Under the pieces are notes generated by a model. That model was not told the origin of the DNA, ran no database searches, and saw nothing but the letters and a program-made list of their open reading frames with translations. A DNA stretch of 64,000 nucleotides from a virus (Duplodnaviria > Caudoviricetes), in the IMG/VR virus record IMGVR_UViG_3300028797_000124, positions 32,001 through 96,000 of that record; one strand, given 5' to 3'. Shown piece by piece: positions 9,387-46,417 of the stretch. Positions within the stretch are counted from its first letter, which is position 1; the number at the start of each line of letters is the position of its first letter. Position numbers and translations under genes: made by a program.

Positions 9387-12257
9387 TTGGAAAATATGGA
9401 TAGAGACAAGACATATGAACGAGCTGTCAAGTTCATGAATAACGTTGCCAAGAAACGCAACGGTGTTTCCAATGTATACGTGTTTACTTCGGTTGATAAA
9501 GAAGGAAATGTTGTTGACGAGAAATACAGTATGAACCTTATGACTCGCTCCGGATTCTCCGAAATATATGCAAGCGGCGTTGCATTCGGTGCAAGAGATG
9601 ATAACAACAATACTGTCAGACTCTATGTTGGAACCGGCGTTGGTGAAACTCCATATTCTGTAACAGATACGGATCTGGAAACGATCGCATTTAACGGACT
9701 TGCAGCAACATTCACAACTACCAGCGATGACTTCATAAAGATCGATGGTAAGAGTAAGTCATATAAATACCCGATGTATTTCGCAAAGGGTGAGCATGAT
9801 GGTGAGGGTTTCATAACCCTCATCTCACGTTTCCTTATAGCTTACTACGATTACAATATTTCCAACTTCCCCGGAGAGTATGACTTGAGCGAGTATGGTA
9901 TCAAGCATAACAACACACTTTGGACACATTCCAAGATATATGATATGCGCGGAAATCCCGCAACTATTAGAAAGACTTCTAATGAAAGATTGTACATAAC
10001 CGTGTACATGTGTCTTTCATTCTACGAAAGTGTCATTATGAACGGTTGGTCAAACAATCGTTTTACTATGATTACCCGCAATGATATGATGTATGACCGC
10101 ATGGCGTGGTCTGCTCGTGTCAAAGTATACAAACGTGGAAACCGTATTGTCGATATTACCGACGGTGGCACTTCACGTACACAGGATACGTCTCAGAACA
10201 ACGCATATACAAACTCAACCATCGCACCGAGAATCATTCTGCATGATAATAATGCTGATACGTATCATACCGATACAAAGATTTTCGACGGTGGATATAT
10301 CGATGGTTACACGTTGTCTGAAACAGGTTTTCTGTGCATGGAACCTCAGTTCCTTCCCGTTCCAGAAGATGTGGAATTGATAAACTATAAAAGCGGAAAT
10401 GCCACAATATATTCTGGATTTGCAGATAAGTTTGGAACAAATCCTTCCTCGGGATATTCCAAAGCACAGTATCCTCAAATGACACATTTTTATGATGCTA
10501 ATGCTTATGTGTTCGACTGGAAATCCGGTGACTGGACATGTAAACTTGATATATATAATCCTGACAACAAGTGGTATGATGAAACATCTATGTCCACAAA
10601 CTGTGCCGTTCCAATATACTATTCTAACAACGGCGAAATCCTTACGGGTTATGTCTACCAGAATCTCAGAACAGATGACAAGATTATTCAGATCACATCA
10701 GGTGCTTCTACAGTATATGCGACAAACAGATATTGGGCAACTGCTGAAGATCAGAACAACCAAGATCCTAACAAGGGTTGGGTTTGGATTCGTGACTACT
10801 CGAATATCCCGTTGGCTTGTCAGACTGCAAGATACTGGATTACTAATACTAACACAGATTCACTCTCATTCAAACGTGAGTCGGATTGTTTCCAGCTTCT
10901 TGAAAAGGGTACTGTCAGCAATGGTTATGCACAATATCCTCAATATGGTGATCTGACTTATATCAGACCGATATGTGACAACTATGCATATGGTTGGTAT
11001 AAGCGTGGTAACAGAGTTTACGTTCCGGATGCTCCAGCAAGACCAATCTACACTGTTGGTGGTGATACTGATGAGACAATGACATATGGAAAGTGGATGG
11101 TTGTATTCCCATCATCCAACAATACAATCATTACCGTAGATATGACTCAAGCCACATCTGGCATAGTGTCTCCTCAGAATGTTCCAACACCATTCACGGG
11201 AAATGTTAACTCATTATCTCAAACACACCGTACTGAGAGTGGCACTGGTTTGATTTGTATGGAATCGACCAATACTGAAGAGTGTGTCGTAATTGATATG
11301 AGGCAAGGAGGATTCTCTCAGGCTGTTCATTCATGGAAACATGCATGTTGTATTTGGGGAACTAACAAGGTTGCTTACATCAATGCCGGTGGCTCAGATC
11401 CAAATGTATACATATTCAATTATGATACAAACCAGATAGAAGGAAATCCAATTCCTTTCCCTGCCGGTTTGACCGATATTCCGCATCTGTTCGGACACAC
11501 AAATTTCTTGTGGATGACCGATGGTTCTACATTCGGTTACGTATGTGATCTCAGAACACCAACTATCAGAAACCTTGAAGGTTTTGCATATGCGGGATTG
11601 TATGGAACCGGTTTGAATACCGTCAAGTATACTTGTGTTGATGATGTATTTATCGTGTACAAATATGATGAGTGTGGAAACAACTCAATCAAACTCGCAC
11701 ATTACATCAAACTGTCCGATCCCACAAATCCAATCAACATGGATGATTTCTCAACACGTACAACTACAGACTATATCGGAGGAAGAATCATATTCGATCT
11801 CAGATATACGAATAGATACACAAATGCTCAAAGCTTGCCGTCAGGAGCGATTGTATTAACAATCATGCGCGGTTGGGATAACAACTCTTCATCTACTCCA
11901 GCGGGTTGTGAATGTAGAGTGATTGACTTTGGTCAATATTTGTGGACTCATGAAGTTAAGTACTATGAGCATGCATCAAACAGTAACTTCGGAAACTTGT
12001 GTCTGTACGGTGAGAATATCATCCACAGATACAACAAAAAGATCCCACTCATAAATTATCTTCCAATCAAGCTTACTGGTAAAACCGATACGATTAATGC
12101 GATGAAATACATTAAGAATATAACCAGCAAGTCTTGGTTGATCGGTTATACAAATACTCCTTCTTGGGGTGATGGAACTGCTTCTCCAAGCGGTAAGCCA
12201 CCGGGAACTCCTCTTGCTGTTACTGATGGAGACGGCACAATTACTGGATGGAGTTGA
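9387..12257 (+). CDS. Putative tail fibre/receptor-binding protein, paralogue 1
   Basis: Shares D..GN.VD...(M/V/L)N..T..G...LY.G.G N-terminus and K/H..G.T.T.N C-terminus with the ORFs at 12823 and 16485; Y/W/N/T-rich. Confidence 0.65.
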   Translation: MENMDRDKTYERAVKFMNNVAKKRNGVSNVYVFTSVDKEGNVVDEKYSMNLMTRSGFSEIYASGVAFGARDDNNNTVRLYVGTGVGETPYSVTDTDLETIAFNGLAATFTTTSDDFIKIDGKSKSYKYPMYFAKGEHDGEGFITLISRFLIAYYDYNISNFPGEYDLSEYGIKHNNTLWTHSKIYDMRGNPATIRKTSNERLYITVYMCLSFYESVIMNGWSNNRFTMITRNDMMYDRMAWSARVKVYKRGNRIVDITDGGTSRTQDTSQNNAYTNSTIAPRIILHDNNADTYHTDTKIFDGGYIDGYTLSETGFLCMEPQFLPVPEDVELINYKSGNATIYSGFADKFGTNPSSGYSKAQYPQMTHFYDANAYVFDWKSGDWTCKLDIYNPDNKWYDETSMSTNCAVPIYYSNNGEILTGYVYQNLRTDDKIIQITSGASTVYATNRYWATAEDQNNQDPNKGWVWIRDYSNIPLACQTARYWITNTNTDSLSFKRESDCFQLLEKGTVSNGYAQYPQYGDLTYIRPICDNYAYGWYKRGNRVYVPDAPARPIYTVGGDTDETMTYGKWMVVFPSSNNTIITVDMTQATSGIVSPQNVPTPFTGNVNSLSQTHRTESGTGLICMESTNTEECVVIDMRQGGFSQAVHSWKHACCIWGTNKVAYINAGGSDPNVYIFNYDTNQIEGNPIPFPAGLTDIPHLFGHTNFLWMTDGSTFGYVCDLRTPTIRNLEGFAYAGLYGTGLNTVKYTCVDDVFIVYKYDECGNNSIKLAHYIKLSDPTNPINMDDFSTRTTTDYIGGRIIFDLRYTNRYTNAQSLPSGAIVLTIMRGWDNNSSSTPAGCECRVIDFGQYLWTHEVKYYEHASNSNFGNLCLYGENIIHRYNKKIPLINYLPIKLTGKTDTINAMKYIKNITSKSWLIGYTNTPSWGDGTASPSGKPPGTPLAVTDGDGTITGWS

Positions 12258-12263
12258 TGACTC

Positions 12264-12334
12264 ATGGCAAATGTATTCAGATCGAAAGAAGTATATAAAA
12301 ACTTTAGATATGATATTGACAAAACCAAGAAAGT
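12264..12334 (+). repeat. 71-bp exact direct repeat, copy 1
   Basis: ATGGCAAATGTATTCAG...ACCAAGAAAGT is identical to 15925-15995. Confidence 0.95.
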
Positions 12335-12806
12335 TGTCCCCGTTCAGGGTGTATACATTGCGAGCGAATATCGCCCGCCTTACTATAACAATCCTACATT
12401 GCGGATATATGAAATATCTTCTGTGCATGCAACCGTTGTTAGCTTTCAGGATGTCACCGCAACCAACGGCGAAGATCCAATGTACAAGATTCTCGATTTC
12501 AAAGTTGAACGATTGATTCCAAACCTCATCAACTATACCACGGGTTCTGCGAACGCTGGTGAAGATACCATGTACAAAATTCTCGATTTCCAGGTAAACA
12601 GATTGATCCCGTCATGTGAATTTTATGAATCGAAATCTCAGAATGCTGGTGAGGATACCATGTACAAAATTCTCGATTTCCGGGTAACAAGACTCAATCC
12701 TGGAGAAACATATTTCTATAAAGCAAAAGGAAATTCGACACCGGAGCCAATGCTCCGGTTGTCGTCTATTACTTCAGAATCCGCATTGGTGGAAAATTAC
12801 ACATAA
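12264..12806 (+). CDS. 180-aa triple-repeat protein A (putative fibre adaptor)
   Basis: Three 30-aa-period repeats GED[PT]MYKILDF.V.RL.P; paralogue of 15925-16467. Confidence 0.75.
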   Translation: MANVFRSKEVYKNFRYDIDKTKKVVPVQGVYIASEYRPPYYNNPTLRIYEISSVHATVVSFQDVTATNGEDPMYKILDFKVERLIPNLINYTTGSANAGEDTMYKILDFQVNRLIPSCEFYESKSQNAGEDTMYKILDFRVTRLNPGETYFYKAKGNSTPEPMLRLSSITSESALVENYT

Positions 12807-12822
12807 GAAAGGAGTGTATGTA

Positions 12823-15800
12823 ATGAAATTGCATTTAGAGCCAGCTCATGCATCAGAACCATTTCCTCAAGTTCTTGAAGATTTCATAAAGAATAATCCC
12901 AATATGAAATGTGAGAATCTCTATCTTTGTGAAAGTATAGATGTCGATGGTAACGTTGTTGATACAAAGATCGGTGTTAACCTATTGACAAATTATGGTC
13001 TTAAAGATCATTTTGTGGATGGCAACTCCCGTTATAATAACATGTATATCTGGCTTGGTTCAGGACAAACAGAGCCGGATCCAACGTCGGCATCACTTAC
13101 AACATACATATCTTCCCTTGGACAAGGTTCAGGCTATGAATATTGGTCAAACACGTTTTATGAATATACTTTTGACCAAGAGACATTATTATGGTCTGTG
13201 AAGAATATAATATCCAAAAATTACTGGGATTACACTGCTGGCAGCAATGGTGAGTATGAGATTTGGGAATTGGGTTTAGGTGCGTCACAGACATCTCTTA
13301 GAACCCATGCACTAATATACGATGAACATGGTCAACAAACCTGCATCGTTAAAAGACCCAATACCCGCTTGTATATTACTGCATACTGGGTTGCATCTGT
13401 TTCAATGGCAGAGGTTCCTGAGATGTATAAAAATGGAAAATATTTATATATCGATCCACATATGGCTATGCCAAATTATGGATATAAAACTGTGTACTGG
13501 TCAAATTTGACACGTGGTAAGTTGTATAATAACGATGCAAATTATGAATGGAGTGGTTCAAGATGGTCTTGGAATACTCATTCATATACCAATCTCGTCA
13601 CGAATGATGCTCGTCAAGCGCACATGGAATTGGGTCCTTCTGATCACAGTGCTTTCTGGGAAGGTAATTTTCTTTATTCTTCGGGTTGGTTGATTGCAGA
13701 AAGCAGAGATTGGGGTAGTCGATATCAGACGGATTTGAAAGACTGTGGATATTATGCAATGATGACATACGATTTGCTTCCCGAACCAGAAGAGATGGAA
13801 TCATATTGGGCATACACTAATTATTCATTCACATATATTCTTTCTGATCCAACTGATTACACCAATGGCGTTAATACCAATCATTGGAGTTTTCTGAGAT
13901 TGGATGGCAATTTTGGTGGAACACAGGCATATCGTAGAACCAGCAATAATCCAACGTCATGGTCGAGCACTAATGCAACGTTCCCGTGCACAGATTTCCA
14001 TATTACTGAATTGACGATGTATAATCACACGACCAAAGAATGGGATATTCCCGTTCCGTATAAGGATGAACCCAACACGATATATTGTGATCATTGGATG
14101 CGTTTCTACCAGACGCTCTGGATCAAGTATAAGGGAAACAGCATAAACGTATATGTTTTCATTAACATGTTTCCACACGATAGTTCTGGAACGCCGATTC
14201 CAAAGATATTGAGTTTCAATAATTCGAACATGGTTCTCGCTGGAACCGATGAATATTGGGATCCATCAACATATGTTGAAATACCAAATCTCAACTCGGT
14301 GCCTGTTGAATTACAACAGAAAAGATACTACGTCGTTGTATCCGGAACCGTCGCCGAACTTGTACCTTCGATGTCGAGAGCAGATTGGTTCAAGCACGAG
14401 ATTCGTCCTGTTAATAGTCCTTTCGAATTGACGCATGAAACAACCGGCATAATTCCACGTATGTTAAAACATAATTCTTACACAAGTTTCAACTCCAATT
14501 ACGACGAAAGTTATAATGGTCAATATACGTATGGAAGTATCCCACTTGTATCAAATACTAAGAAGTTTTTCTGTATAAACTGGATGTTGGTTTTCTGTGA
14601 TGAGAACTGGAATGTCACACGATATAATCTCCTTTTGGAAGATAAATATCCAGGATGTAGATACAGAAGATATATGACAGCTGATTGCGACAGAATACTT
14701 TGGTTTGCCACAAGAACCCGTACAAATCTTGAAAATGAGACAAGTGGTTCAAATAACACTTCCTCATATGCTGTTGCAGCAAACTGTTTCTCGATATGGA
14801 CGATAGTAGACGAAAACACAACTCCAACAAGAGTTGATCTTGATCTTTCAACAATGTGGACAGATGCATCATTGGTTAATAACAATACATGTTATCATAG
14901 ATACTCTTGGAGTGATGTTGGATATCTTGTTGTCGCAAAGAGAAGAACTGAACCGGAATTCGTATATGTTGATATATATGGAACAGGCAATGGTCCTGAG
15001 ATGCATCTTGTAACTGATGCAAAACACGCCAGGGCAATAGAACACACTCAATTTTGTATATATCAGGACATGAATTTGACAGAGGGTTCGAAATATGTGT
15101 TTAACATATTTGATATGTCATCAGGTACGGTTGATGATACGATTACTATCGATGATGGAACCACATATACCATTGATGGCACGTATGGATATAACGAACA
15201 TGTGTATGTCCGTGTTAAATCTTCAGCCAATCTTGAATATACTTATTATTACAATCGCAACACACACTCACTGGAAAAAATTGCAGATGCATTCGATTTC
15301 ATGGTTACAGACAGAATATACTGGCATTCTACCACAACCATCTATGATGACTATTGTATACTGAATCAAAGTCATAATGGTGGTGGACATTCATATATTA
15401 TACATGGAAACGAATGGCATAGGATCTTCCCAAGTGATACAGTTAATAACGTATCATCATATCAAAAATGTTGGGCATGCCTCAATACGATAAATGATGG
15501 AAAACAGTTGTTGATGGGTCTGTCTGGACGTTCGAGTACATCCAATACTTCATATGTACTTGATCTTGGTTTACTGCTCGACTCATCATCTAAGACCGAA
15601 GACTATGTCCCATACGGACATTTTGGTTCCAAAGATTGTACCGAAGGTTATGATATTACAGGTCCTGTTATTCCATATAATGATGGCATAATTGTAATGT
15701 CGGGAGCTGAAAGAAATAAAACATATGGTTCCAACACTAAGCTCGGAAGAATATGGTGGTTCCCTCCGGAGATGTGTTTGCGTCTTCACATGAAAGGAAC

Positions 15801-15918
15801 AACTCGCACACTCAACTCATACAATGCTCCAATAAGATGGTATCTCACAAAGAAAGTCAAGTGGGATGTTACAAACGATTTATCGAGATTGCTTCCGCAG
15901 AATAACGTTGGGGAGTGA
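12823..15918 (+). CDS. Putative tail fibre/receptor-binding protein, paralogue 2
   Basis: ORF 12814-15918; AGAAAGGAG RBS favours ATG 12823; shared motifs with paralogues 1 and 3. Confidence 0.65.
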   Translation: MKLHLEPAHASEPFPQVLEDFIKNNPNMKCENLYLCESIDVDGNVVDTKIGVNLLTNYGLKDHFVDGNSRYNNMYIWLGSGQTEPDPTSASLTTYISSLGQGSGYEYWSNTFYEYTFDQETLLWSVKNIISKNYWDYTAGSNGEYEIWELGLGASQTSLRTHALIYDEHGQQTCIVKRPNTRLYITAYWVASVSMAEVPEMYKNGKYLYIDPHMAMPNYGYKTVYWSNLTRGKLYNNDANYEWSGSRWSWNTHSYTNLVTNDARQAHMELGPSDHSAFWEGNFLYSSGWLIAESRDWGSRYQTDLKDCGYYAMMTYDLLPEPEEMESYWAYTNYSFTYILSDPTDYTNGVNTNHWSFLRLDGNFGGTQAYRRTSNNPTSWSSTNATFPCTDFHITELTMYNHTTKEWDIPVPYKDEPNTIYCDHWMRFYQTLWIKYKGNSINVYVFINMFPHDSSGTPIPKILSFNNSNMVLAGTDEYWDPSTYVEIPNLNSVPVELQQKRYYVVVSGTVAELVPSMSRADWFKHEIRPVNSPFELTHETTGIIPRMLKHNSYTSFNSNYDESYNGQYTYGSIPLVSNTKKFFCINWMLVFCDENWNVTRYNLLLEDKYPGCRYRRYMTADCDRILWFATRTRTNLENETSGSNNTSSYAVAANCFSIWTIVDENTTPTRVDLDLSTMWTDASLVNNNTCYHRYSWSDVGYLVVAKRRTEPEFVYVDIYGTGNGPEMHLVTDAKHARAIEHTQFCIYQDMNLTEGSKYVFNIFDMSSGTVDDTITIDDGTTYTIDGTYGYNEHVYVRVKSSANLEYTYYYNRNTHSLEKIADAFDFMVTDRIYWHSTTTIYDDYCILNQSHNGGGHSYIIHGNEWHRIFPSDTVNNVSSYQKCWACLNTINDGKQLLMGLSGRSSTSNTSYVLDLGLLLDSSSKTEDYVPYGHFGSKDCTEGYDITGPVIPYNDGIIVMSGAERNKTYGSNTKLGRIWWFPPEMCLRLHMKGTTRTLNSYNAPIRWYLTKKVKWDVTNDLSRLLPQNNVGE

Positions 15919-15924
15919 TGTTGA

Positions 15925-15995
15925 ATGGCAAATGTATTCAGATCGAAAGAAGTATATAAAAACTTTAGATATGATATTGACAAAACCAAGAAAGT
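15925..15995 (+). repeat. 71-bp exact direct repeat, copy 2
   Basis: Identical to 12264-12334. Confidence 0.95.
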
Positions 15996-16467
15996 CGTAG
16001 CTGTTCAAGGTGTATATGTCGCGAGTGAATACAGACCACCTTATTACAATGAACCCGGTATCCACATATATGAGATATCGGGTCAACATTGTACCATCGC
16101 AGATTTCAAAACCGAAGAGGTTGAAACTCAAGGCATGGAAACTGCTGGTATGTATATGTTTGATATCACTGAATCAGCATATACTCTTGAACGATATTCC
16201 ACTCAAAGTAAAGATGCAACACCAACAGAAACTGCTGGTATGTATATGTTTGATATCACTGAATCAGCATATACTCTTGAACGATATGAAAAGGATTATA
16301 TCGATACAGAGGGTATGGAAACAGCTGGTATGTATATGCTGGCTATTGTTGATTCTGGATATCGACTCGATATATACGGAAAGAAATCTTCCAACTCAAC
16401 ACCAGAACCCATACTTCGTTTATCATCACTCACATCGGAAGCATGTGTTGTTGAGAATTATACTTAA
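15925..16467 (+). CDS. 180-aa triple-repeat protein B (putative fibre adaptor)
   Basis: Three 30-aa-period repeats ETAGMYM..I..S.Y.L..Y; same N-terminus and NSTPEP.LRLSS.TSE...VENYT C-terminus as 12264-12806. Confidence 0.75.
   Translation: MANVFRSKEVYKNFRYDIDKTKKVVAVQGVYVASEYRPPYYNEPGIHIYEISGQHCTIADFKTEEVETQGMETAGMYMFDITESAYTLERYSTQSKDATPTETAGMYMFDITESAYTLERYEKDYIDTEGMETAGMYMLAIVDSGYRLDIYGKKSSNSTPEPILRLSSLTSEACVVENYT
16138..16287 (+). repeat. Intragenic tandem repeat: 60-bp exact unit at 90-bp period
   Basis: GAAACTGCTGG...GAACGATAT at 16138-16197 and 16228-16287; diverged third copy from 16318. Confidence 0.9.
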
Positions 16468-16484
16468 GAAAGGAAGGGATATTT

Positions 16485-19400
16485 ATGAATGAAATAAATG
16501 AATTCAAACCTGTCCCGAGACCCGCTTTTCAAGATATACCTTTCGATCCAACGGGCTTCCCCGAAAGTGTTGAGGAATTCGAAAGAAACTATGAAAAGAA
16601 ACATCCTAACGACTCTGCGATAGCACACAACATATATCACATCGTGGCAGAAGATTTGGATGGCAATATCGTTGATGAAGCTTTTGGTTTGAACATAATG
16701 ACCGATTATGGATTCTCTCAAAAGCACACGATGACTGATTCATACTATTCCGCACTATCCGGATTGTATCTTGGAGATGGTGAATGGTCCGGGGACCTTG
16801 ATCCAGCATCAAAAGTATTGGTTCATCCGATATCGTCTACAAGTGCAAACATGACATACACCGGATACAGTCATAATTTGACAAAATGGATTCCTGAGAA
16901 AGAAAGCAATCTTGTTAGGTTCAAATTATGTGAAGGATATTTCGATTATACGGTATGGTCTGAAGATCATACCGTAACAGAAATCGGTATCGCGTACAGA
17001 AATGGTGATATAAATAATCTTGTATTCCATGCCGCAGTATACGATGCCCAGGGTGAACGAACAACATTCGTCAAGAAAGTAAATCAGAAATTGACAATCA
17101 CAGTGTGGGGCAGAATAATGGTCCCTATTGTTAAAATTGTTAATTCATCCTGGGACAGGGGCATTCCATGTGTCATAAACTCTAACTCATTTTGCCAGTT
17201 GTATTATGGCAACTATTGGAGAGTGTTAACTGCAAACTTTTATCCGTTTGATTGGCATGATGGTGAGTGGTATAGCGCATGGTATGTTAGAAACTATGAT
17301 ACTGGCTCAATCACCGATCACGTATATAATGCATCCGGAACGTGTGGTATGAACATATTCATTGATGGAAGATATCAGTACGTTTCAGATATCTTATTTA
17401 ATTCAAGTTGGTCTTCTGGCAGGGCCTGTCAATATGATACGTATTACATTTTTGCAACGAAATTGAAGATGGCTGAACCGATACCTTTCGAAACGGACAA
17501 ATATCGTTTGGGAGGATACAACAGTGGAAGTACATCGGGTACTTATTGTCGTAGAAATCGTGACACTGCACGCGATCCGAATGGTCAACTTCCAATGACG
17601 GATATTCACGTAACTTCATTATCGATGTATAATGGTCAAACCGATGACTTCGATATCGATGTACCTATATATGAACCATACCCATATGTTGAACACGGCA
17701 TTTTCCTTTTACGTCTTCGCGTAAGAGAATATAACTATATTACATTTTTAAATAGATATGAATGGTATACCGTATACATCAATGAATCTCAGGAATTCCC
17801 GATAAAGAGCATCAGCAATGCCAGCAGAACATTCTATGTTACTGACGCTTATTGGGATTCTTCCACATGGGAAATTGTCCCAAACAATAGTTCAATATCC
17901 CGTGAACAAGGTTCGAAACGATATTTCATCATGTTTGAAGACAGTTTTCCTTGGCGGAGCGATGACTGGAACTATGGATATTATGGAGGGGAATACTATA
18001 CAAGAAATGTTTCCAGATATGATTGGACGCTTCCTCGTATTGATGTGAATAATCGCATTAGTGAAGACACCATGGATTTTGGTCGTCCAACCAATAATTC
18101 ATATAATTATTATTCACGTATTTACGCTGAATCATATTATTCTGGCAAGTATGTTAAGAACGAAACGATTGGTTATATTGCGGGCGACGGTTTCATAATG
18201 TATCCTGATGACTTTTCATTAGATACTCCTCAAACAAATATTCTGGGTAACTACTCGTGGAATAATTATAGTAAGAGCGCGAATTTCTCAGGATATAATC
18301 ACAGATATCCAATGGGTGGTATAGATTTACCAGCAGTCCCATCTGGATATAATAATGATGGCACGCATCCAGGAATGATATGGAATACTACACGGGGCAC
18401 ACATATTGCAAACTGCGGATATAATTCTTGGTCAAGGGGTGTAAGAGTTTACACACCAAGTTCAGATCCAACTGAAGCTCCATCATATGAAAACTTCACA
18501 TTCGATGCGGCGTGGTCCGATGTACCAGCAATGACTGATACACAAAACGGTTATGTCGTATTTTCATATGTTTCTGGTGCAAACAATGCAAACTGCACAT
18601 ATGTGGTCGAATACGATGTCGAAGGTGTCGCTCCAAATATGTACAAGGTCGAAGGATATCATCACGGTTGGGCTATTGATCTGACGAATTATTTTGTCGC
18701 GATAGACGCATCAGTCACAGACCATCTCCATATGGTCGTATATGATATGGCCAATCGTACGATTCATGCCGAATTCGATCTTCCCGAAGGATATACCTTC
18801 CAGGGTGGTGCGGGATGGAAAGATTATGTGTATATCCGTGTTGACCAATCTGGTGCCAAATCAACTTTCTTATACTATATCAATAGTGGTATTTATGAAA
18901 ATACACCACTCAATATCCCACAAATGAGATTGGATACAACTTCATACTATGCACACATACAACGTTCTGTGCCCGCAAATGGAAATATTGAAAGTTGTAT
19001 GGTTCTTCTCGCGTCAGATAGAGATATCGATAATGAAAACCATGTATTCTTCAAGGAATCAGATCCAACACATTCGGTTCAACTGATAAGAAACGAACGA
19101 TGTGAAACATCAAACTATATCAGATGGCAGAAAGCGTGGTTGGGTTATTCATCCGACAACAAACAACTGATATTGACATATGCTGGTAGAAGAAATATTG
19201 CCTTAGACTTAGGCTGGTGTCTGAAGCATGGAACCGTATCTACTCATTTAACATGGGGGGATTTGTATGATGAGTCTTCGAACACATATACTCCAATATA
19301 TTACAAAGGATACATATATTGTATGCAATTATATCGTTATGAATATTATGACGAGAAACATAGATTCCGCCATAGATACTGGAGACAGCCTGTCCAACAA

Positions 19401-19574
19401 TGGTTGAATCTCAAGATTGTTGGTACAACGTATACACCAAACTCAATGATGAATCCTGTTCGTATACAAGGTAACTTTGCAACATGGCTTTATCAGGATA
19501 CCAACAGAGGAACCGATGTGGCTCCAGAGCCATACGTTCCGCCACAGGAGGAAGAAGAAGATCCTCCATTATAA
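16485..19574 (+). CDS. Putative tail fibre/receptor-binding protein, paralogue 3
   Basis: RBS AGAAAGGAAGG; shared N- and C-terminal motifs with paralogues 1 and 2. Confidence 0.65.
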   Translation: MNEINEFKPVPRPAFQDIPFDPTGFPESVEEFERNYEKKHPNDSAIAHNIYHIVAEDLDGNIVDEAFGLNIMTDYGFSQKHTMTDSYYSALSGLYLGDGEWSGDLDPASKVLVHPISSTSANMTYTGYSHNLTKWIPEKESNLVRFKLCEGYFDYTVWSEDHTVTEIGIAYRNGDINNLVFHAAVYDAQGERTTFVKKVNQKLTITVWGRIMVPIVKIVNSSWDRGIPCVINSNSFCQLYYGNYWRVLTANFYPFDWHDGEWYSAWYVRNYDTGSITDHVYNASGTCGMNIFIDGRYQYVSDILFNSSWSSGRACQYDTYYIFATKLKMAEPIPFETDKYRLGGYNSGSTSGTYCRRNRDTARDPNGQLPMTDIHVTSLSMYNGQTDDFDIDVPIYEPYPYVEHGIFLLRLRVREYNYITFLNRYEWYTVYINESQEFPIKSISNASRTFYVTDAYWDSSTWEIVPNNSSISREQGSKRYFIMFEDSFPWRSDDWNYGYYGGEYYTRNVSRYDWTLPRIDVNNRISEDTMDFGRPTNNSYNYYSRIYAESYYSGKYVKNETIGYIAGDGFIMYPDDFSLDTPQTNILGNYSWNNYSKSANFSGYNHRYPMGGIDLPAVPSGYNNDGTHPGMIWNTTRGTHIANCGYNSWSRGVRVYTPSSDPTEAPSYENFTFDAAWSDVPAMTDTQNGYVVFSYVSGANNANCTYVVEYDVEGVAPNMYKVEGYHHGWAIDLTNYFVAIDASVTDHLHMVVYDMANRTIHAEFDLPEGYTFQGGAGWKDYVYIRVDQSGAKSTFLYYINSGIYENTPLNIPQMRLDTTSYYAHIQRSVPANGNIESCMVLLASDRDIDNENHVFFKESDPTHSVQLIRNERCETSNYIRWQKAWLGYSSDNKQLILTYAGRRNIALDLGWCLKHGTVSTHLTWGDLYDESSNTYTPIYYKGYIYCMQLYRYEYYDEKHRFRHRYWRQPVQQWLNLKIVGTTYTPNSMMNPVRIQGNFATWLYQDTNRGTDVAPEPYVPPQEEEEDPPL

Positions 19575-24099: not shown

Positions 24100-27000
24100 A
24101 TGGCTCAAGATAAAGTTCAGCTCAAACGTGAAGAAGTCGTTGGAAATGATGTTGTGTTGCAGGATATAAATCCTAAGACCAAGACCAATTCCATTACAGA
24201 TTCTGCCAAAGGAGTTCCGTTAGATCAGACTCTTGCATTGATCAAGAACATGATTAACAACAAACTCTCACGAGTTGTAAACTCTGTGAATGGCAAAACT
24301 GGTATTGTTATACTTGATGCAAATGATGTTGGTCTTGGAAATGTTGACAACATTTCTTTCGGCGATATCAAGCGTTGGGTTATAGAATATTTGGGTGATA
24401 TCTTCGGTTCGAAGAGAATAATCCTCAGGGACTACCTCTCCCAGATTCATGAGATACTCGGCACGAATGACAAGATCTACGCAGATACTCCATTCTATGC
24501 CCAGGCTGGCGATGCGACGAACAATGACTTCATCGCATACATCGGTTACATATATTGGGATGAAACTACATCCTCATTGAGAGAGGAACACAAGGAAATC
24601 AAGGTCATTGGTTTCACTGACGAGTCTCTCGTATACAATACAAACTGTGATATCGATCCGTATCATCCTGATGATCACAGGAATCTTTCAGGTGGTGGAC
24701 TTGCTGTAAACATCTGGTCTAAGGAGGATGCCCTCAAGATCAGGCGTGCTGAGGGTCTCTTTACAAGAGACGGGTATGATCCTGCTGTTCTTAATGACAC
24801 GGGTCTTTATATCGATAAGAGTAAAGTTGTTCCCAATGTATACTTCTTCGATGGAGTATATGGAACTCTTACGGGTGAAGGTACCGGTATGCACAATATT
24901 GATGCTCTCGTATATTGGTCAAACGACCCACATGATACTACCGAAAGCAACCTTCCAATTCTCAATATCACGATAAATGGTCAGGCAATCGGAATGACAT
25001 CGACTGCGGGTGGAGATCCTGTATACACGCTTCATCATCCATCTGATCTTCCTCTTAAAGTTGGAGATATCATTCTCACAAACTTTGCTTTCGATCAGTA
25101 TATCAATCCCGATGATGCATCTCACAGAGAAAATGTTCTTTACCCAAGAATGCTTGACTCGTTGACATGCCGTCAACCTTCTCTCGGTGTTGTAACTCAG
25201 GTTGCTGATACAACTAATGATACGCCGTGTATAATCGATTTTAAACCACGAAGACCAAACGTTGGTCACGGCTTGAAACTGATTATAACCGACAGTGCTT
25301 CTGGAGTTGGTCCGGAAGATTCTGAGATTGGACTTGATCTCATGGAAGGTACTATTACAATGGGTGATGGCACTAATATTGATACCAATGATGGAAACAA
25401 TGTTTCGGGTATCAATGCTATAGACAAACATGATCCAATATCCAGATCTCCTCGTAGTTCTCAGGCAAAGCATCTGTACACTGTATATCCAACCGGAAAG
25501 AGTTCGGATTTGATCGGTGGAAGCATCGATGTAGATTCATCATTCATTCTTCCAAATTTCTCAATGTGCATAATTCCATCGGCCCTTAATAAAGCTTCGA
25601 GTGAACCAGCGATCAAGAACTGGAATCCTACATCACCAATGTCAAACACTCATGCTGGTGAAGTTCTCGGTAACGCCCGCAAGTTTAACATGGTTGGTGT
25701 GAACCTTGCAAAGGTTATTATGGATACAAATGTTGGTGATGATGATCACGCATTTGCAAGAAATGTTTCCGGTCTGAGAGTTAATACAAGTGATGACTTA
25801 TTCGACGATGAGTGGTATGGATATGGTTCAGGTATAGATACTATACCAAACTATCTGACATCTGGTGGTATCTCTGTTAACGTCGGCGACTTCCTTGGAA
25901 TAGGCACACCAACAGAACTTTCAGCAGCTCCTGCTGAAAAAGGTAGCTACTATAACGAGGGTAAAGTCAATGTACGTATTGACAGAATGCAAGGTCTTAA
26001 CGGTGTTGCTGGAAACAGGCTTGCTGTTAATATCGCCGGTGGATATTCATACGCTCCGGAAGGGATTACGCATAACTGGCTTGAGGGTGGTCTCACATTT
26101 GTTGATGGTGGTACCCGCGCTCCCGCTCAGGGTGTTCTTGCAGTTAATACCGCAGAGGAGGCTTCTGGTCTTGGTATTAAGAACTCATATAGAGTCAATG
26201 TTAGACATACCAACTGGGGTAATCGTATAATGGCTGACACTTTCAACAACGTTCTGGTTGTTAAACCTGCCAAGTTTACCGAATCTTCGACAGAAAGGGC
26301 ATCACTTACAAAGTCTGGTCTTGAGGTTCACAAACAGATTCAAGAAGAAGATTTTGCAAATAAGATAACATTCACAAACATATACAATCAGAGAATGTGG
26401 TTATCTGAAGGACAACTCCATGACGATATAGTCCAGAACCCATCCAACTTTGATACTACTCACATATACATCGCGGGAGGAAAGCGTTTCATATATGCTG
26501 AACCTCAAGGACAACAAACAGAAATAAGTTTGTTCATGTACTACTCGGATGAATCCGAATATAACGCGATTCTCACATGGATTAGAACAGGAAATGATTC
26601 TGATGTTCCGGATGCAACCTGGCCCATCCACGGATATACACTCACACCAAATGAACACACAACAGCAAATGATGAATGTCTGGCAATTCTTCGGAGACAG
26701 TGTCATGTGTTGATCGAGGAATATCCAAGTATATCGAATGATACCAGATATAGACTAAAGGCTTCTATTTCCGAACCAACAACATCTGCAGATCTTCGTT
26801 TTCCAGATCTTGATCACGATGGCAATGTTGATGCTACAGAGGCATCATCTGTACTTGCTTATTTCTCATTCTTAGTTACGGTTACGCGAGTATACTCAAC
26901 TACAGTCGGTGGTCAAAAGGTGTTCTACACAGATCCAGGACTGACCACTCCACTCGAACCCGTTGTGGGCAGAGGATACATGGATATGAATGATTATCTG

Positions 27001-27906
27001 GAGGATTCGGAACACGCAGGACACATATATTATATGCCATATAATGCGGTAAAGGATCCAGGATCTGATATCGTATATCTTAAGAAGTACGAATTCGATC
27101 CGGGTAGATCAGCAACACTTCAGGATGTTATGTATGCCGATGTTGATAGAGACGGTCGTATTGATGCTGTAGATGGATCCCGCATATTGACATACTATGC
27201 AAACTGTTCATCCGGAAAGTATCCTGGTATGACAGCGGAAGAATCATGGCGGGAATATCTAAGAGAAGCTATGGGTATCATTGTTGGTAGTGGTGCCCGT
27301 GAGGTTTATCAAGTATTGGATATGATATACGATCCAGGTGTTCGCGTTAGATATAATGAACAGAAGGGTCTTACAACATTCCCCAACTACTTTGGAAACA
27401 CAGCGTATGATACTCAGACACTCATGGAAAATGATATGAAGGATGCGCTTGCGATAAAGATTGCGGATACCACTTCGGGTATGTTTGAATTCGATCCTGC
27501 TACTGCAGGTGGTTTGAGATTTGGTTCCAATGGATATCTTGCCGTAAGAGTCAACAACAACAATCATTATTCATCAATCCTTCCAATCAAAAACAATCCA
27601 GCACATATTGATGATCTCAGCACAGGTTCTCGTGGTCTGAGAATATATAATACTGATAGTGCTTTCAATGTACTCGGTATTCAACTCTCAAGAGACGGAT
27701 CTCTCGATAATGGTGAACTGAAGATCGATGCCCAGGGATGCCTTAGACTTTCTGGAGCAATCCGCCCAGATGTTAAGAAACTTAAATTCAAATGCGGTGC
27801 ACAAGAAGTTGAGTACGATGGTAACGATGAAGTTACTATCGAATTTGGTCCGGGTATGATCGTTACGGAACACAGCATAACATCAGAAGCACATTCACAA
27901 CTTTAA
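24100..27906 (+). CDS. Long tail fibre-like protein carrying a dockerin-like domain
   Basis: N-terminal VNSVNGKTG.V.L...DVGLGNVDN phage tail repeat; repeated GGL.VN / GL.F...G.L.V fibre-shaft motifs; DLDHDGNVDATEASSVLAYF and DVDRDGRIDAVDGSRILTYYA dockerin-type repeats. Confidence 0.75.
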   Translation: MAQDKVQLKREEVVGNDVVLQDINPKTKTNSITDSAKGVPLDQTLALIKNMINNKLSRVVNSVNGKTGIVILDANDVGLGNVDNISFGDIKRWVIEYLGDIFGSKRIILRDYLSQIHEILGTNDKIYADTPFYAQAGDATNNDFIAYIGYIYWDETTSSLREEHKEIKVIGFTDESLVYNTNCDIDPYHPDDHRNLSGGGLAVNIWSKEDALKIRRAEGLFTRDGYDPAVLNDTGLYIDKSKVVPNVYFFDGVYGTLTGEGTGMHNIDALVYWSNDPHDTTESNLPILNITINGQAIGMTSTAGGDPVYTLHHPSDLPLKVGDIILTNFAFDQYINPDDASHRENVLYPRMLDSLTCRQPSLGVVTQVADTTNDTPCIIDFKPRRPNVGHGLKLIITDSASGVGPEDSEIGLDLMEGTITMGDGTNIDTNDGNNVSGINAIDKHDPISRSPRSSQAKHLYTVYPTGKSSDLIGGSIDVDSSFILPNFSMCIIPSALNKASSEPAIKNWNPTSPMSNTHAGEVLGNARKFNMVGVNLAKVIMDTNVGDDDHAFARNVSGLRVNTSDDLFDDEWYGYGSGIDTIPNYLTSGGISVNVGDFLGIGTPTELSAAPAEKGSYYNEGKVNVRIDRMQGLNGVAGNRLAVNIAGGYSYAPEGITHNWLEGGLTFVDGGTRAPAQGVLAVNTAEEASGLGIKNSYRVNVRHTNWGNRIMADTFNNVLVVKPAKFTESSTERASLTKSGLEVHKQIQEEDFANKITFTNIYNQRMWLSEGQLHDDIVQNPSNFDTTHIYIAGGKRFIYAEPQGQQTEISLFMYYSDESEYNAILTWIRTGNDSDVPDATWPIHGYTLTPNEHTTANDECLAILRRQCHVLIEEYPSISNDTRYRLKASISEPTTSADLRFPDLDHDGNVDATEASSVLAYFSFLVTVTRVYSTTVGGQKVFYTDPGLTTPLEPVVGRGYMDMNDYLEDSEHAGHIYYMPYNAVKDPGSDIVYLKKYEFDPGRSATLQDVMYADVDRDGRIDAVDGSRILTYYANCSSGKYPGMTAEESWREYLREAMGIIVGSGAREVYQVLDMIYDPGVRVRYNEQKGLTTFPNYFGNTAYDTQTLMENDMKDALAIKIADTTSGMFEFDPATAGGLRFGSNGYLAVRVNNNNHYSSILPIKNNPAHIDDLSTGSRGLRIYNTDSAFNVLGIQLSRDGSLDNGELKIDAQGCLRLSGAIRPDVKKLKFKCGAQEVEYDGNDEVTIEFGPGMIVTEHSITSEAHSQL
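26806..27222 (+). other. Dockerin-like domain: two Ca-binding loop-helix repeats separated by an insert
   Basis: Repeat 1 starts at aa 903 and repeat 2 at aa 1014. Both fit D-x-D-x-D-G-x-[VI]-D-A-x-[DE]-[AG]-S-x-[VI]-L-x-Y-[FY]. Confidence 0.75.
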
Positions 27907-27917
27907 GGAGGTAGCAT

Positions 27918-28412
27918 ATGTCCGAAACTGTCAAAATGACTCTTAATCTGGACAACTCCCTCGAATATGCGGATGGAGGCTCGGGTCCTTTAAGAGTAAA
28001 GAAATCTCTGAAGTCGGGAAATACTTTATCATTTGAATCAGATGGATTATATGCAGAAGCAATACCAGGACAGCCCGGTTCCACAGGAACCGGGTATCCT
28101 GATAACTATCGCTCTGCGAACGGTGTAATGTCAGGTGTTGCAACTCCAGAAAGTATGAACTCGGTACCGAAAAGAATGGTTGGTCCAAGTATAATGCATC
28201 GTATATTTACAGCTTCAAGTCCAGATGGTTCGGACATACAACTCAGAACTATCGATAGAGTATATCCTGGCGATTTGTATCGCGTAAAAGATACAACACA
28301 TGGCAATTGGAATTATTACATAATCACAAAGGTTGCGTCAGACAACAGAGTTGTTACTGGTCATACTGGTGAGGTGGCTATAATTCCTTTAACACAAGAA
28401 GACGTAAACTAA
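27918..28412 (+). CDS. Small fibre-associated protein 1
   Basis: RBS AAGGAGG; M.E.[VI].[MI].L N-terminus and N.L.F..DGLY motif shared with the next two ORFs. Confidence 0.7.
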   Translation: MSETVKMTLNLDNSLEYADGGSGPLRVKKSLKSGNTLSFESDGLYAEAIPGQPGSTGTGYPDNYRSANGVMSGVATPESMNSVPKRMVGPSIMHRIFTASSPDGSDIQLRTIDRVYPGDLYRVKDTTHGNWNYYIITKVASDNRVVTGHTGEVAIIPLTQEDVN

Positions 28413-28425
28413 AGGAGGTGTTTAT

Positions 28426-28821
28426 ATGCCGGAGACAATTAAGATTACTTTAGATCCCGATGGTCAGTCTATTGGATTCAGCAACAATTCAATGGTACTT
28501 AAATTGTCAGCTAAAGCAAACAACGGTCTTTCATTTTCAGACGGTAAGTTGGTTGCAACAAAAGCTCCCGATGGTTCAGGAGGTTCTGGTGGTACTATGA
28601 ACACTCCTGGAAATGCAATAGGTCCTGTAGATGCGACGGAGAACACATCTCTTAATACGGTGGGTTTCAATTCTACGGTTTCTCGCCACAAGAAATATAC
28701 CGGAACGAATTCTTGGCTTCAAACAAATGATGGTCCGGTTATGACAAAGAACTCGAATGGTCAGATGGTACCAAATGGATCTATTGCACATTACATGATA
28801 TTGCACGCAACAGGAGGTTGA
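28426..28821 (+). CDS. Small fibre-associated protein 2
   Basis: RBS AAGGAGGTG; LSAKANNGLSFSDGKL motif followed by a GS linker. Confidence 0.7.
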   Translation: MPETIKITLDPDGQSIGFSNNSMVLKLSAKANNGLSFSDGKLVATKAPDGSGGSGGTMNTPGNAIGPVDATENTSLNTVGFNSTVSRHKKYTGTNSWLQTNDGPVMTKNSNGQMVPNGSIAHYMILHATGG

Positions 28822-28825
28822 TGAC

Positions 28826-29551
28826 ATGTCAGAAAAGATAGTTATCGGTCTTGACCTCAACAACGGACTTCACGTTGATAGTGAAGATAAAGTTGGAGTT
28901 TACTATGAACAAAACGGAAACATGCATCTCGAAACAGACCCCGACCCAACAGACGGTAAGAATGGTATATACGTTGAAAATCTGAATGGTGCTGATGGTT
29001 CAGGTGGTGCTTCAAGATATGACGGTTGGACTATGAAGCCAGGTACTGGTTGGAATCTGAATGATTCAAGTCAGACTATAAATAATTTCATAGATATGGA
29101 TAGAGATGTTGTAAATCTCATATTCACATTCGGTCTATATAAAGTAACTACCCGCCACCCTACATCTATCTCATACAGTTCAGCTGTTAAAGATGTTCGT
29201 GCAATATGTAATGAAATTGTTGCACCTGTATACTACTCTCCTTCAAGCTATACCAGTTTCAAACCTGGAGCAGGAGAGTTGATCCAGCTTGTAAAGAATC
29301 CAACATTCAGAACGGTTCCATACACTGGAGGAACTGGTTCAACAATTGCTGTTGAAAGTGGCAATCGTATTGGAAACGACAATCTGGAAACAGCAGTAAT
29401 GTTCGTGATTATGGATATCGCATATTCACCCAATAACATCTACTGGGTAACAAGCATGAACCTGTGCTGTATATATTCAACCGTATCAGACTTTGTGGTT
29501 GGTCAGAGTTATTCGGGATCACAATTATTCCAGCCACCTGGTTACGTATAA
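28826..29551 (+). CDS. Small fibre-associated protein 3
   Basis: RBS AGGAGG; related N-terminus (NNGLHV...NGIYV) and GS linker. Confidence 0.7.
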   Translation: MSEKIVIGLDLNNGLHVDSEDKVGVYYEQNGNMHLETDPDPTDGKNGIYVENLNGADGSGGASRYDGWTMKPGTGWNLNDSSQTINNFIDMDRDVVNLIFTFGLYKVTTRHPTSISYSSAVKDVRAICNEIVAPVYYSPSSYTSFKPGAGELIQLVKNPTFRTVPYTGGTGSTIAVESGNRIGNDNLETAVMFVIMDIAYSPNNIYWVTSMNLCCIYSTVSDFVVGQSYSGSQLFQPPGYV

Positions 29552-38220: not shown

Positions 38221-38263
38221 GAATAAGGCGGGGGCGTATGCCCCCACCCTTCTTAACTTTTTT
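38219..38263. terminator. Bidirectional terminator between convergent genes
   Basis: GGGGGC-gtat-GCCCCC flanked by a T-run on plus and ATTCTT on minus. Confidence 0.75.
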
Positions 38264-41200
38264 ATCCGACTGAAAGTTTTGTAACCTGTGATGGTATTCT
38301 TTCATCGAATAGCTTTGATGATCCACTGGTATTAGTAGGACCACCGTTTCCACCTTTACGACGTTTGAGCTCTTCGAGTATCGCTTCAAGCAATGCTTCC
38401 ATAGACTCGGAACGAACGTTGTAGGTGTTTGCGAGAATTGCCTTAAGACGAGCATCTGTTGCTCTATCTTCAGCACGAGTAACCGCGTAGTTATTAACAA
38501 CCGTTGTACCGGTTTCGGTATCGTAATATGTGTCTGTATCATACAAGTCATTGTTGACTGGTGTTGTGATATTGGAATTAGCATACTTGTTATTCCATCC
38601 GAGATAGTTATCCCAGAAATCCATCTCATTCATATCACCAGACGCATACCAGTTGTGTAGTAAGTCAAGCTGTTTCTTGAGGGGATCGTTGACTCTGTCC
38701 TTGCTGTCGAGATAGCTGTACATCCAATAATGTTTGTCTGTTGGGCCGTATGTCTCACCATGATGTTTATGACTCGCATTACGATATGAAAGCTTGTAGC
38801 TATCTGCAGCAGTTTTCGCCTTACCCATAGCAGTACCGCCATTCTTATTTTTTCCAGCAATGGCGCTTGAATGATAATCTACGAGCATTGGATACCATTC
38901 ATTTCGTTTATCTGAGTTAACATCCGAATCGGTCCAATGTCCGAAATCCCACATCTTTTCATCGACAGAAGATGACGATCCTCCAGAAGGAGATATTTTT
39001 CCTCCACCGGTTGAATTGTTTGCATATGTTTGTAAAGCCTTAACTGCTTCATCAGCTTTGGCAAGTTCATCCGGCGGAACGACTGCTTCATCTGCGGTAT
39101 ACAAACCATCACGCCAGTCATTATCCAGAACGATCCATTCAGCATTGACATAACCCGTCTGACCACCATATGACGCCTTATACCAGCCCTGTTTACCAGA
39201 GACTGAAAGCTCTTCAAGATGTGTACCATCTGGAATCCATGTGAGTACTGAACTATCATCCGAGGTACTCGATCTCAATCCGAGAGGTACTCCAGTATTT
39301 GTCATTACAGTACCGGAATTCTTACCATTGAGCGAGTTGATCTGACGAGCGTTTTCAACTATTGCGGCATCTCCAGGTGAATTAACCATACCGTATCCAG
39401 TTGACGCAGAACCCTTACCAGTTGGAGTTGTGTTCTTAGCAGCGGCAACATCAGGAGACCAATCTTTGAATCTCTCATAGAATTGATCCGCATATGTCTG
39501 ACGTTTCGCAAGAGCAGCATACTTGTTTGTTGATGAAAGACCCTCATAGATATTGAGAACCTTCTCTGCTGCAGCCGCAGGAGTGCCAGCATTATTAGCG
39601 CCTGTAAGTGCAGAATTGTAGTAGTTATTATTTGTAACCTCATCTTCCCATAATGCGAGCTGTGCTTCAAGACTGTTAAATGGAACTCCCATCTTAGTAC
39701 CCTTATTGAATACCGATTTAGTTCTGTTACCAGTCCACTGTGCAAGGCCAACACCAGGGTAGAAGTTTCCGTCACCATCCGGTTCATATGTTGGTCTATT
39801 AAGGCTTCCCCAACCACCATAAACTTTGGCAACCATGTCTGTTACATAACTATTCATATTCGCTTGAGACTTATATGCATTCATAACAGCGGGACTATTG
39901 ATACCACCCATCTTCCAGTCACCTTCAAGACGGCTCGGGTTGTTTGCAGATTCAACTTCCCAAACACCCATGAATCCAGCTGCACCAGTCTTATTTGCAC
40001 CATGCGATGTAAGATAAGCCCAGATTTTTTCCTGATCATTGTCACCGACAAGACCATCATATGTTGGCTTAACGTATCTGAGAATTTTATCAGGATGGTC
40101 AGATGGTTGCATTGTCCATCTCAAGCCGTCACCACTTGAAACACCTTCAAGAACCTTTGGTGCGGCTCCAGCAGAATCAAGTATAGGTTGAGTTCCACCA
40201 CCGTCGAGACCTCTGTGTGAACCACTACTATCCTTGCCGATATACATACCAACGTGTGATTCAGGATAAGAATCAGATTTACCAGATGTAAATATCCAGT
40301 CACCAGGACGGAGATCGCTCTCACTGTAAGGAAGAACTTCCCAATCCTCTTCAGCAGAATTGCCGTTCTGATCAACGATAGTTTTAGTACCGTAAGACGA
40401 TAAATTCTCATTGAAGTTGTATGTGAGTGGTCCGGTTGTATCATTGTCACTGCCCTTGAAGTCATAACCCATATGTCTGATAGATGCTGACATGAAACCT
40501 GAGCAGTCTGGTCTGAAGTGTGACCAAGTATAACCATCATCAGCTGTAATAGGTCCAACATCACTATGGAGATATGTGCCCGAAGGATGTGCATCAACAT
40601 ATGCTTTGAACGCATAAGCCGCACCTTTCATGACGTCAAGGCCACTCTGTCCTCCACGTGCACTACCACTACCCAATGAATCCAGAGCGCTGTCAAGCTC
40701 AGTATAAGCATCACCGAGTTTGTCAAACAAACCACCAGTGATGTTACCGTTTTCATCAACCTTACCAGCATAATCATCAACAAACTTTTGGTTTGTCTTA
40801 GCCAGTTCAGCATATGCATCTTGACCTTTCTTAGAAGCTGCATCAAGTAATTCTGTCTTGGCGAGATATTCAGCTTGATTTGCTTTAGTTTCCCACCATT
40901 TGTCGAATTTCTTTTGATAATCCTCATCAGATTCTCCATCTTTCTGAGGATATTTTGTTTTGAAATCTTCGAGAGCAAGACCCTTGGCTTCTTCAGCATA
41001 AGTGTCGTAATCATCACCCATCTGTTTCTTAGCCTGTTCAACTGCTTCTTTTTTCTTTTCAGCATTGATGAGTTCTTCCGTTTCTTCCTCGTCAGATTTC
41101 TCCATTGAGAACAATCCGAGAATCTTGGCAGCCTCATCCTTAAGCTTCTTGAATGCTTCTTTGATAGCATCCGGGAATGTGTATCCGCTCTCTGCATCTT

Positions 41201-46388: not shown

Positions 46389-46417
46389 ATTAACCCCTCC
46401 TTTCAATTAAATTTATA

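Follow-up and report, generated by a model that had tools for sequence, protein, structure and literature searches.

A split dockerin within a tail-fibre-like protein of a ruminant-gut jumbo phage, a candidate plug for host-surface cohesins

Introduction

Few protein contacts are as tight and as specific as those between cohesins and dockerins, which on Ruminococcus cells keep the machinery of fibre digestion in place. A dockerin found inside a phage protein raises the question of what a virus would plug into, and what for. Here this question is addressed for a tail-fibre-like gene (P0001) at positions 24100..27906, plus strand, of the window, the whole 64,000-nucleotide stretch of DNA analysed, which corresponds to bases 32001-96000 of the 117,790-bp IMG/VR record IMGVR_UViG_3300028797_000124. 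A first-pass annotation, made from the sequence letters alone, had pointed to two calcium-binding loop-helix units in this gene and proposed that they form a dockerin. By profile hidden Markov model (HMM), by sequence and by predicted fold, the module is indeed a true dockerin, which is split into two halves by a conserved beta-rich insert.

A dockerin in two halves

The open reading frame (ORF) translates into 1268 amino acids (aa) with no internal stop, and its N-terminus lacks a hydrophobic leader, hence a signal peptide; its description as a tail-fibre-like gene derives from the open frame, its homologues, the gene order and the neighbours. Both loop-helix units are found in the ORF, DLDHDGNVDATEASSVLAYFS starting at aa 903 (nt 26806) and ADVDRDGRIDAVDGSRILTYYANCSSG starting at aa 1013, and the first Asp of loop 1 and the first Asp of loop 2 are separated by 111 aa, the same spacing that the first-pass annotation had given.

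The Pfam profile Dockerin_1 (PF00404) matches the whole fibre in two stretches with an E-value (E) of 3.3e-7 and 30.8 bits, and an excised 159-aa piece with 33.6 bits, the curated gathering cut-off being 22.9 bits. The earlier proposal would have lost its ground if generic EF-hand or FG-GAP motifs had turned out to be the best matches, which is not the case, as EF-hand_5, EF-hand_1, EF-hand_6 and FG-GAP_3 all score under their own Pfam cut-offs on the fibre and the best matches are dockerins. A six-frame scan of the 117,790-bp record with Dockerin_1 gave matches solely at the two segments of the fibre. The best PDB match by sequence is the ScaH dockerin 8AJY (E 3.8e-7), followed by a group-2 dockerin of Ruminococcus flavefaciens FD-1 (9GVB) and then by the CttA XDoc (4IU2/4WKZ). 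These three classes of dockerins all bind the ScaE cohesin (PMC5301203), which agrees with the R. flavefaciens flavour, including ScaE binders, that the first-pass annotation had recognized in the motifs. The consensus of the 138 nearest dockerins, retrieved from 1.84 billion representative proteins, is likewise of the 'DAVDAS.IL.YYA..STG' type, and in the same search the dockerin module with its insert was confined to the fibre's own family. A 63-aa query of segment 2 against longer proteins likewise retrieved this family alone, a consequence of the word filter. A feature search of the ESM Atlas with the module again returned 'dockerin' and nothing else.

Along the plus strand, the module starts with dockerin segment 1 (26794..26880, aa 899-927), which comprises the Ca loop D903-E914 and helix 1 and is delimited by sequence, Pfam, alignment and an AlphaFold2 (AF2) model. 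It is followed by the beta-rich insert (26881..27117, aa 928-1006), defined by the AF2 model and by its conservation in the family, and by dockerin segment 2 (27118..27210, aa 1007-1037), with a short helix 2, the Ca loop D1014-D1025 and helix 3, supported by sequence, Pfam, the PDB sequence match and alignment. A trailing helix 4 (27211..27285, aa 1038-1062, 'EESWREYLRE'), seen in the AF2 model and in the alignment, closes the module. Thus, the two Ca loop-helix (F-hand) segments of a Dockerin_1 domain are both present, D903-E914 and D1014-D1025, whereas the short linker usual between them is replaced by the insert of ~79 aa between helix 1 and helix 2. The two segments are identical at 9 of 21 positions, a partial internal symmetry, and at positions 10-11 of their loops, where group-4 dockerins have Gly-Arg, one shows Ala-Thr and the other Ala-Val. 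These two positions are variable across the fibre homologues, a few of which have Gly-Arg or Gly-Ser.

The AF2 model, which covers aa 840-1110 of the fibre, shows a pLDDT (predicted local distance difference test) of 96-98 across aa ~899-1059, and it places in order loop 1, helix 1 (aa 912-927), five beta strands (aa 929-996), a short helix (aa 1007-1013), loop 2, helix 3 (aa 1023-1037) and a fourth helix (aa 1046-1058), the strands of the insert having a pLDDT of 95-98. A Foldseek search of the PDB with this model gave 8ajy_B at the top (prob 1.00, TMt 0.70), the remaining matches being noise, whereas the top 12 matches of VIA-align against 48,161 chains were all dockerins, led by 8ajy_D with a Z of 10.2 and a root-mean-square deviation of 2.4 A over 84 of 84 residues (31% identity). 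The alignment to 8AJY spans model residues 60-222, trailing helix 4 included. Because the model superposes on all of 8AJY, the two halves are predicted to reunite as a whole dockerin with the insert looped out, in the compact three-helix fold with packed repeat helices, so that the unpacked helices that would have spoken against the first-pass idea do not appear in the prediction. The beta-rich insert, searched as part of the module model, gave no clear fold match.

As regards the rest of the protein, the N-terminal anchor (24100..24429, plus strand, aa 1-110), delimited by the identity profile and by weak PHROG matches, is the best-conserved part, with an identity of 0.93 among close homologues and 0.83 among distant ones, and its aa 17-90 match minor tail and virion proteins of PHROG weakly (E 2.5e-4 for tail matches at aa 17-87). 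The C-terminal region (27286..27906, plus strand, aa 1063-1268) carries shaft-like G-L-x-V repeats and, in the alignment of homologues, conserved Gly, Leu and Asn columns. An AF2 monomer model of aa 1040-1268 (229 aa) has low confidence (pLDDT 48.5), as would be expected if this region folds only as an oligomer. The dockerin module is therefore internal, lying ~200 aa short of the C-terminus.

An old feature of the fibre family

About 40 full-length homologues of the fibre were found on contigs of 250-280 kb, together with ~60 further relatives of a paralogue type that share only the N-terminal ~55% of the protein. A shared N-terminus with differing distal halves is what fibres typically show when their distal parts can be exchanged, and the protein has several features expected of a tail fibre, namely a location in a fibre cluster, a conserved N-terminal anchor and an exchangeable distal part.

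In an alignment of 38 full-length homologues with identities of 37-96%, positions 1, 3, 5, 9 and 12 of loop 1 are D, N or E in 33-38 of the 38 sequences, and positions 3, 5 and 9 of loop 2 are D or N in 31-36 of them. D903, D1014 and D1025 are invariant, as is W1050 of the trailing helix, and Gly is kept at loop position 6 in 35-36 of the 38. The ~79-aa insert is likewise conserved across the family. Since module and insert persist even where identity within the family has fallen to 37%, the sequence comparison indicates that dockerin and insert together are an old, selected feature and not a recent capture; on this point the first-pass annotation, which spoke of a 'captured' dockerin and so implied a recent event, does not stand.

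Comparison with known dockerins and phage adhesion modules

The closest known counterparts are the group-4 (type III) dockerins of R. flavefaciens, such as ScaH (8AJY), which like the fibre have two DxDxDGxxDxxD loops, each with a helix of the 'DAS.IL.YYA..S(T/S)G' type after it. Dockerins of group 4 and of group 2 have nanomolar affinity for the LPXTG/sortase-anchored ScaE cohesin, and the symmetrical group-4 members have a Gly-Arg recognition dyad (PMC5301203). With its partial symmetry and with the dyad replaced, the dockerin of the fibre is a type-III, group-4-like dockerin but not a group-4 member in the strict sense. An insertion is not in itself foreign to dockerins, as those of CttA and ScaB (XDoc; 4IU2, 4WKZ) also have internal insertions (PMC5301203), but the beta-rich insert of ~79 aa is about twice the longest inter-repeat linker among the dockerins of R. 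flavefaciens FD-1, which measures 37-45 aa (PMC2930009). Moreover, the parent protein of R. flavefaciens dockerins is of another kind, since here it is a phage fibre synthesized in the cytoplasm, without signal peptide, with the module internal instead of C-terminal. The fibre does not show the combination of signal peptide and cohesin-encoding genome that marks a component of a cellulosome, as far as searches for Pfam cohesins in its own record, in two related viral records and in five MAG bins can tell.

On the phage side, major tail proteins of Gram-positive siphophages can carry adhesion modules. A known site of such modules in these phages is the distal tail protein (Dit), evolved forms of which bear, as tail lysins do, accessory carbohydrate-binding modules that are active in adsorption (PMC9128512). 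Both they and the dockerins described here represent an accessory binding module grafted on a conserved tail scaffold, but the evolved Dit and tail-lysin modules bind wall polysaccharides, whereas the predicted ligand of the fibre is a protein socket, a cohesin, and its carrier is the fibre of a jumbo myovirus. No paper on dockerin-mediated adsorption or on dockerins on phage tail proteins was found in full-text searches of the literature, in line with the first-pass remark that such a mechanism is not known to have been described. The nearest report concerns dockerin domains on a putative virus contig of anaerobic methanotrophic archaea (ANME) (PMC13452462), and the word 'dockerin' is absent from a review of phage adsorption to Gram-positive bacteria (PMC9863714). 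A dockerin carried by a phage fibre, and with a split architecture, is new, and its use as a phage adhesin, if demonstrated, would be new biology as well.

Dockerins on other phage proteins

A search of 400 Clostridia species representatives offered a parallel case. One of them (G255), a 2.0-Mb genome, harbours an integrated prophage of the siphophage type, which has genes for head, tape measure, Dit, Tal and integrase and whose Dit protein (phrog_33, 232 aa; C15:13477-14175) ends in a complete dockerin that resembles that of the fibre and also has a trailing 'SW.EF' helix like the fibre's. This is the sole Dockerin_1 match in the G255 genome. The same genome encodes two cohesin proteins with signal peptides on contig C5, apart from the prophage contig, one of 299 aa with copper-amine-oxidase-N-like repeats and the other of 1075 aa with many repeats. 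Here the host is known and has the sockets, and the sole plug detected is on the phage tail; the Dit dockerin and the G255 cohesins would make a natural matched pair. The cohesins of G255 and of a further genome, G159, were also considered as stand-ins for the partner of the fibre and discarded, as by sequence they are not ScaE-like and match type I weakly or not at all.

Of the 138 dockerin proteins nearest to the fibre's module, single members match PHROG families of Dit, major tail proteins (two families), an Ig-domain structural protein and virion structural proteins. Two families of 'unknown function', phrog_35892 and phrog_18805, match 20 and 16 of the 138, respectively, so PHROG may already hold unnamed dockerin-bearing phage families, as far as whole-protein matches can tell. 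Another of the 138, the tail-tip protein P0116, has its nearest known kin in two Ruminococcus phages, with 65% and 44% identity over its N-terminal part. The genes of these relatives belong to the tail modules, with the minor tail protein gene on one side and the endolysin gene on the other. Neither the relatives nor the two phages as a whole have a dockerin, which suggests that C-terminal modules have been swapped. All in all, similar dockerins recur on phage tail proteins that are unrelated to one another, in positions suited to adhesion.

Not every phage-encoded dockerin follows this pattern. Ruminococcus phage NatCom_28274 (PV036439.1) encodes a 362-aa protein annotated as hypothetical with a Dockerin_1 domain of 47.5 bits, which it shares in kind with the phage under study. 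Unlike the fibre, that protein has a signal peptide, is encoded outside the tail module and bears a normal unsplit dockerin at its C-terminus, and it is probably a moron product delivered to the surface complex of the Ruminococcus host and not a part of the virion.

The phage, the fibre cluster and the host

The record encodes a major head protein, a prohead protease, a 2714-aa tape measure, a sheath and a large terminase, as well as several beta-type subunits of a multisubunit RNA polymerase, a topoisomerase II and the endolysin. With a CheckV completeness of 44% for its 117,790 bp, the whole genome would measure ~260 kb. The nearest cultured relatives are the Bacillus phages AR9/PBS1 and Staphylococcus jumbo phages (29% identity over 85% of the terminase, 21% for the capsid); AR9/PBS1 and the staphylococcal S6/SA1/Madawaska share with this phage the multisubunit RNA polymerase genes and a size of ~250-270 kb, although they are very distant from it. 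The contig is an AR9/phiKZ-like jumbo phage from the ruminant gut, and the jumbo-phage fibre context assumed in the first pass is borne out by these structural genes and by the fibre neighbours described below. A tblastn search of 50,697 deposited phage genomes gave no match to the fibre, to dockerin segment 2 or to the sheath.

The fibre gene is preceded by three tail-fibre paralogues recognized by their match to phrog_4176, with two 180-aa genes in between (9387..19574, plus strand); its neighbourhood also includes a 1448-aa gene on the opposite strand and, downstream, three small fibre-like genes of 164, 131 and 241 aa (27918..29551, plus strand). Related contigs from ruminant gut samples have the same gene order. 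The three small genes, also syntenic in relatives, have a common fibre-like N-terminus with the motif M-x-E-x-[IV]-x-[IM]-x-L-[DN], shaft-like repeats and a Gly-rich linker, after which their C-termini are unrelated. They gave no Pfam or PHROG match, and their products may be accessory mini-fibres or proteins of the tip. The fibre cluster opens with a 1494-aa protein (4902-9386), which matches the ALK/LTK glycine-rich domain PF12810 in three stretches (E 1.6e-64, 218.6 bits).

Hints about the host come from the genes of the phage itself. The endolysin combines an Amidase_2 domain with a C-terminal domain of ~250 aa and matches solely phages of Gram-positive hosts, the best being a Faecalibacterium phage (50%) and phages of Acutalibacteraceae and Ruminococcus (44-46%). 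Its wall-binding domain has more than 1100 relatives, many of them on jumbo-phage contigs, and matches of 64-76% identity occur in two bins (G001 and G002), where they probably lie on co-binned phage contigs. The tape measure (38262..46406, minus strand), identified by its domain matches, carries in its C-terminal part NlpC/P60 (aa 1959-2059), Phage_lysozyme2 (aa 2125-2313) and SH3_3 (aa 2376-2425) domains. Because of the endolysin, of these wall domains of the tape measure and of nearest cultured relatives that infect Bacillota, the host is probably a Gram-positive bacterium and probably a member of the Oscillospirales, an order that would fit the type of dockerin.

Contigs of this jumbo-phage clade have also been deposited under other names. 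The metagenome-assembled genome (MAG) RGIG7277 from water-buffalo caecum, labelled 'Parabacteroides sp.', includes the 138-kb contig JAFYOM010000014.1 and at least two more contigs of the clade. Since the phage lysis genes indicate a Gram-positive host, their placement in Parabacteroides is probably a binning artefact.

What the dockerin would be for

The proposal that we put forward as the most likely, though at about even odds, is that the fibre dockerin serves the virion as an adhesion knob which, in the presence of Ca, is inserted into a cohesin of the host surface; the cohesin partner, the host and the presence of the fibre in the virion are all elements that we infer. After lysis, the dockerin would bind Ca2+, and the Ca-loaded module would plug into a host-surface cohesin, the likely target being a ScaE-like single-cohesin anchor or another scaffoldin cohesin. 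Such a plug would provide the virion with a tight and specific first attachment, leaving the remaining steps of adsorption to the other fibres and the tail tip. In favour of the proposal are the identity of the module as a dockerin, its selected Ca loops, the known class of cohesin partner, the phage and fibre context, the type of host and the parallels on other tail proteins.

Several observations weigh against this proposal. In control searches, Dockerin_1 matches above the cut-off were obtained for B. thetaiotaomicron and M. acetivorans, which have no cellulosomes, and because such modules occur in non-cellulosomal organisms a dockerin fold alone is no proof of a cohesin partner. The insert of ~79 aa might mask the binding face or change it, the Gly-Arg dyad of group 4 is replaced by Ala-Thr and Ala-Val, and the dockerin evolves no faster than the rest of the fibre. 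It does not sit at the fibre tip, as 206 aa follow it, and the fibre is synthesized in a compartment poor in Ca2+, the cytoplasm. Furthermore, the MAG bins with fibre homologues disagree about the host (Parabacteroides, Clostridia, Bacteroidales and Spirochaetaceae), the binning of phage contigs being unreliable, and Pfam cohesin is absent from all five of these bins. Part of this evidence, namely the dockerin-like modules of organisms without cellulosomes, the conserved large insert and lost dyad that depart from known cohesin binders (PMC2930009, PMC5301203), the unremarkable rate of evolution and the lack of cohesins in the associated bins, would favour a Ca-dependent structural knob with no cohesin partner, which would stiffen or stabilise the fibre outside the cell or bind some other ligand, for instance a wall polymer contacted by the beta insert. 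We consider this unlikely, as cohesin binding is proven for the dockerins that come closest to the module in sequence and fold (PMC5301203), a mere Ca site would not require a whole three-helix dockerin with exposed helices, and similar dockerins recur on unrelated tail proteins, in one case in a host genome with secreted cohesins.

The same evidence of fold and sequence that speaks for a cell-surface receptor would also serve a variant of it, in which the cohesins bound by the dockerin would belong to cellulosomes or amylosomes that have been shed or sit on plant particles, so that virions would be parked near feeding hosts and encounters would rise. The lateral, non-terminal position of the dockerin and the many other fibres that could supply the true receptor binding fit this idea, to which we give a rather small chance, since the closest relatives bind the ScaE cohesin anchored to the cell wall and not the cohesins that integrate enzymes (PMC5301203). 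A joint within the virion, with the dockerin plugging into a cohesin-like domain of another phage protein and, for example, attaching accessory fibres, is suggested by the three small syntenic genes directly downstream of the fibre, and, with only 44% of the genome available, such a partner might be encoded in the rest. This we regard as very improbable, given that neither this record nor two related viral ones (61-64% complete) gave a match to Pfam cohesin, although these genomes are partial and the HMM may miss divergent cohesins, that the small downstream proteins, candidates for such a partner, were set aside because by sequence they resemble short fibres and not cohesin beta-sandwiches, and that the G255 cohesins, with their signal peptides and on another contig, point to proteins of the host surface.

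If the preferred reading of the fibre dockerin as an adhesion knob is extended to the other tail proteins, dockerins would represent a widespread and undescribed class of phage adhesion modules, in which unrelated phages of cohesin-bearing Clostridia would each have grafted one on the virion (on jumbo-myovirus fibres, siphophage Dit, tail-tip and major tail proteins) and would use the ScaE-like anchors of their hosts as receptors, a generalization that we hold tentatively and with somewhat less than even confidence. Whatever its ligand, the split dockerin with an internal domain is a new architecture for the engineers of cohesin-dockerin modules. Should the proposal be right, a labelled dockerin module would become a simple handle to find, through the cells that it stains, the hosts of uncultured rumen jumbo phages. 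A cell-surface cohesin anchor would then be a phage receptor, and the sockets of cellulosomes and amylosomes would also be phage entry points, so that phage predation would be linked to the digestion of fibre in rumen and gut. Bacteria would have to trade efficient degradation of fibre against resistance to phages, and the rapid diversification of cohesin-dockerin specificities would be easier to explain.

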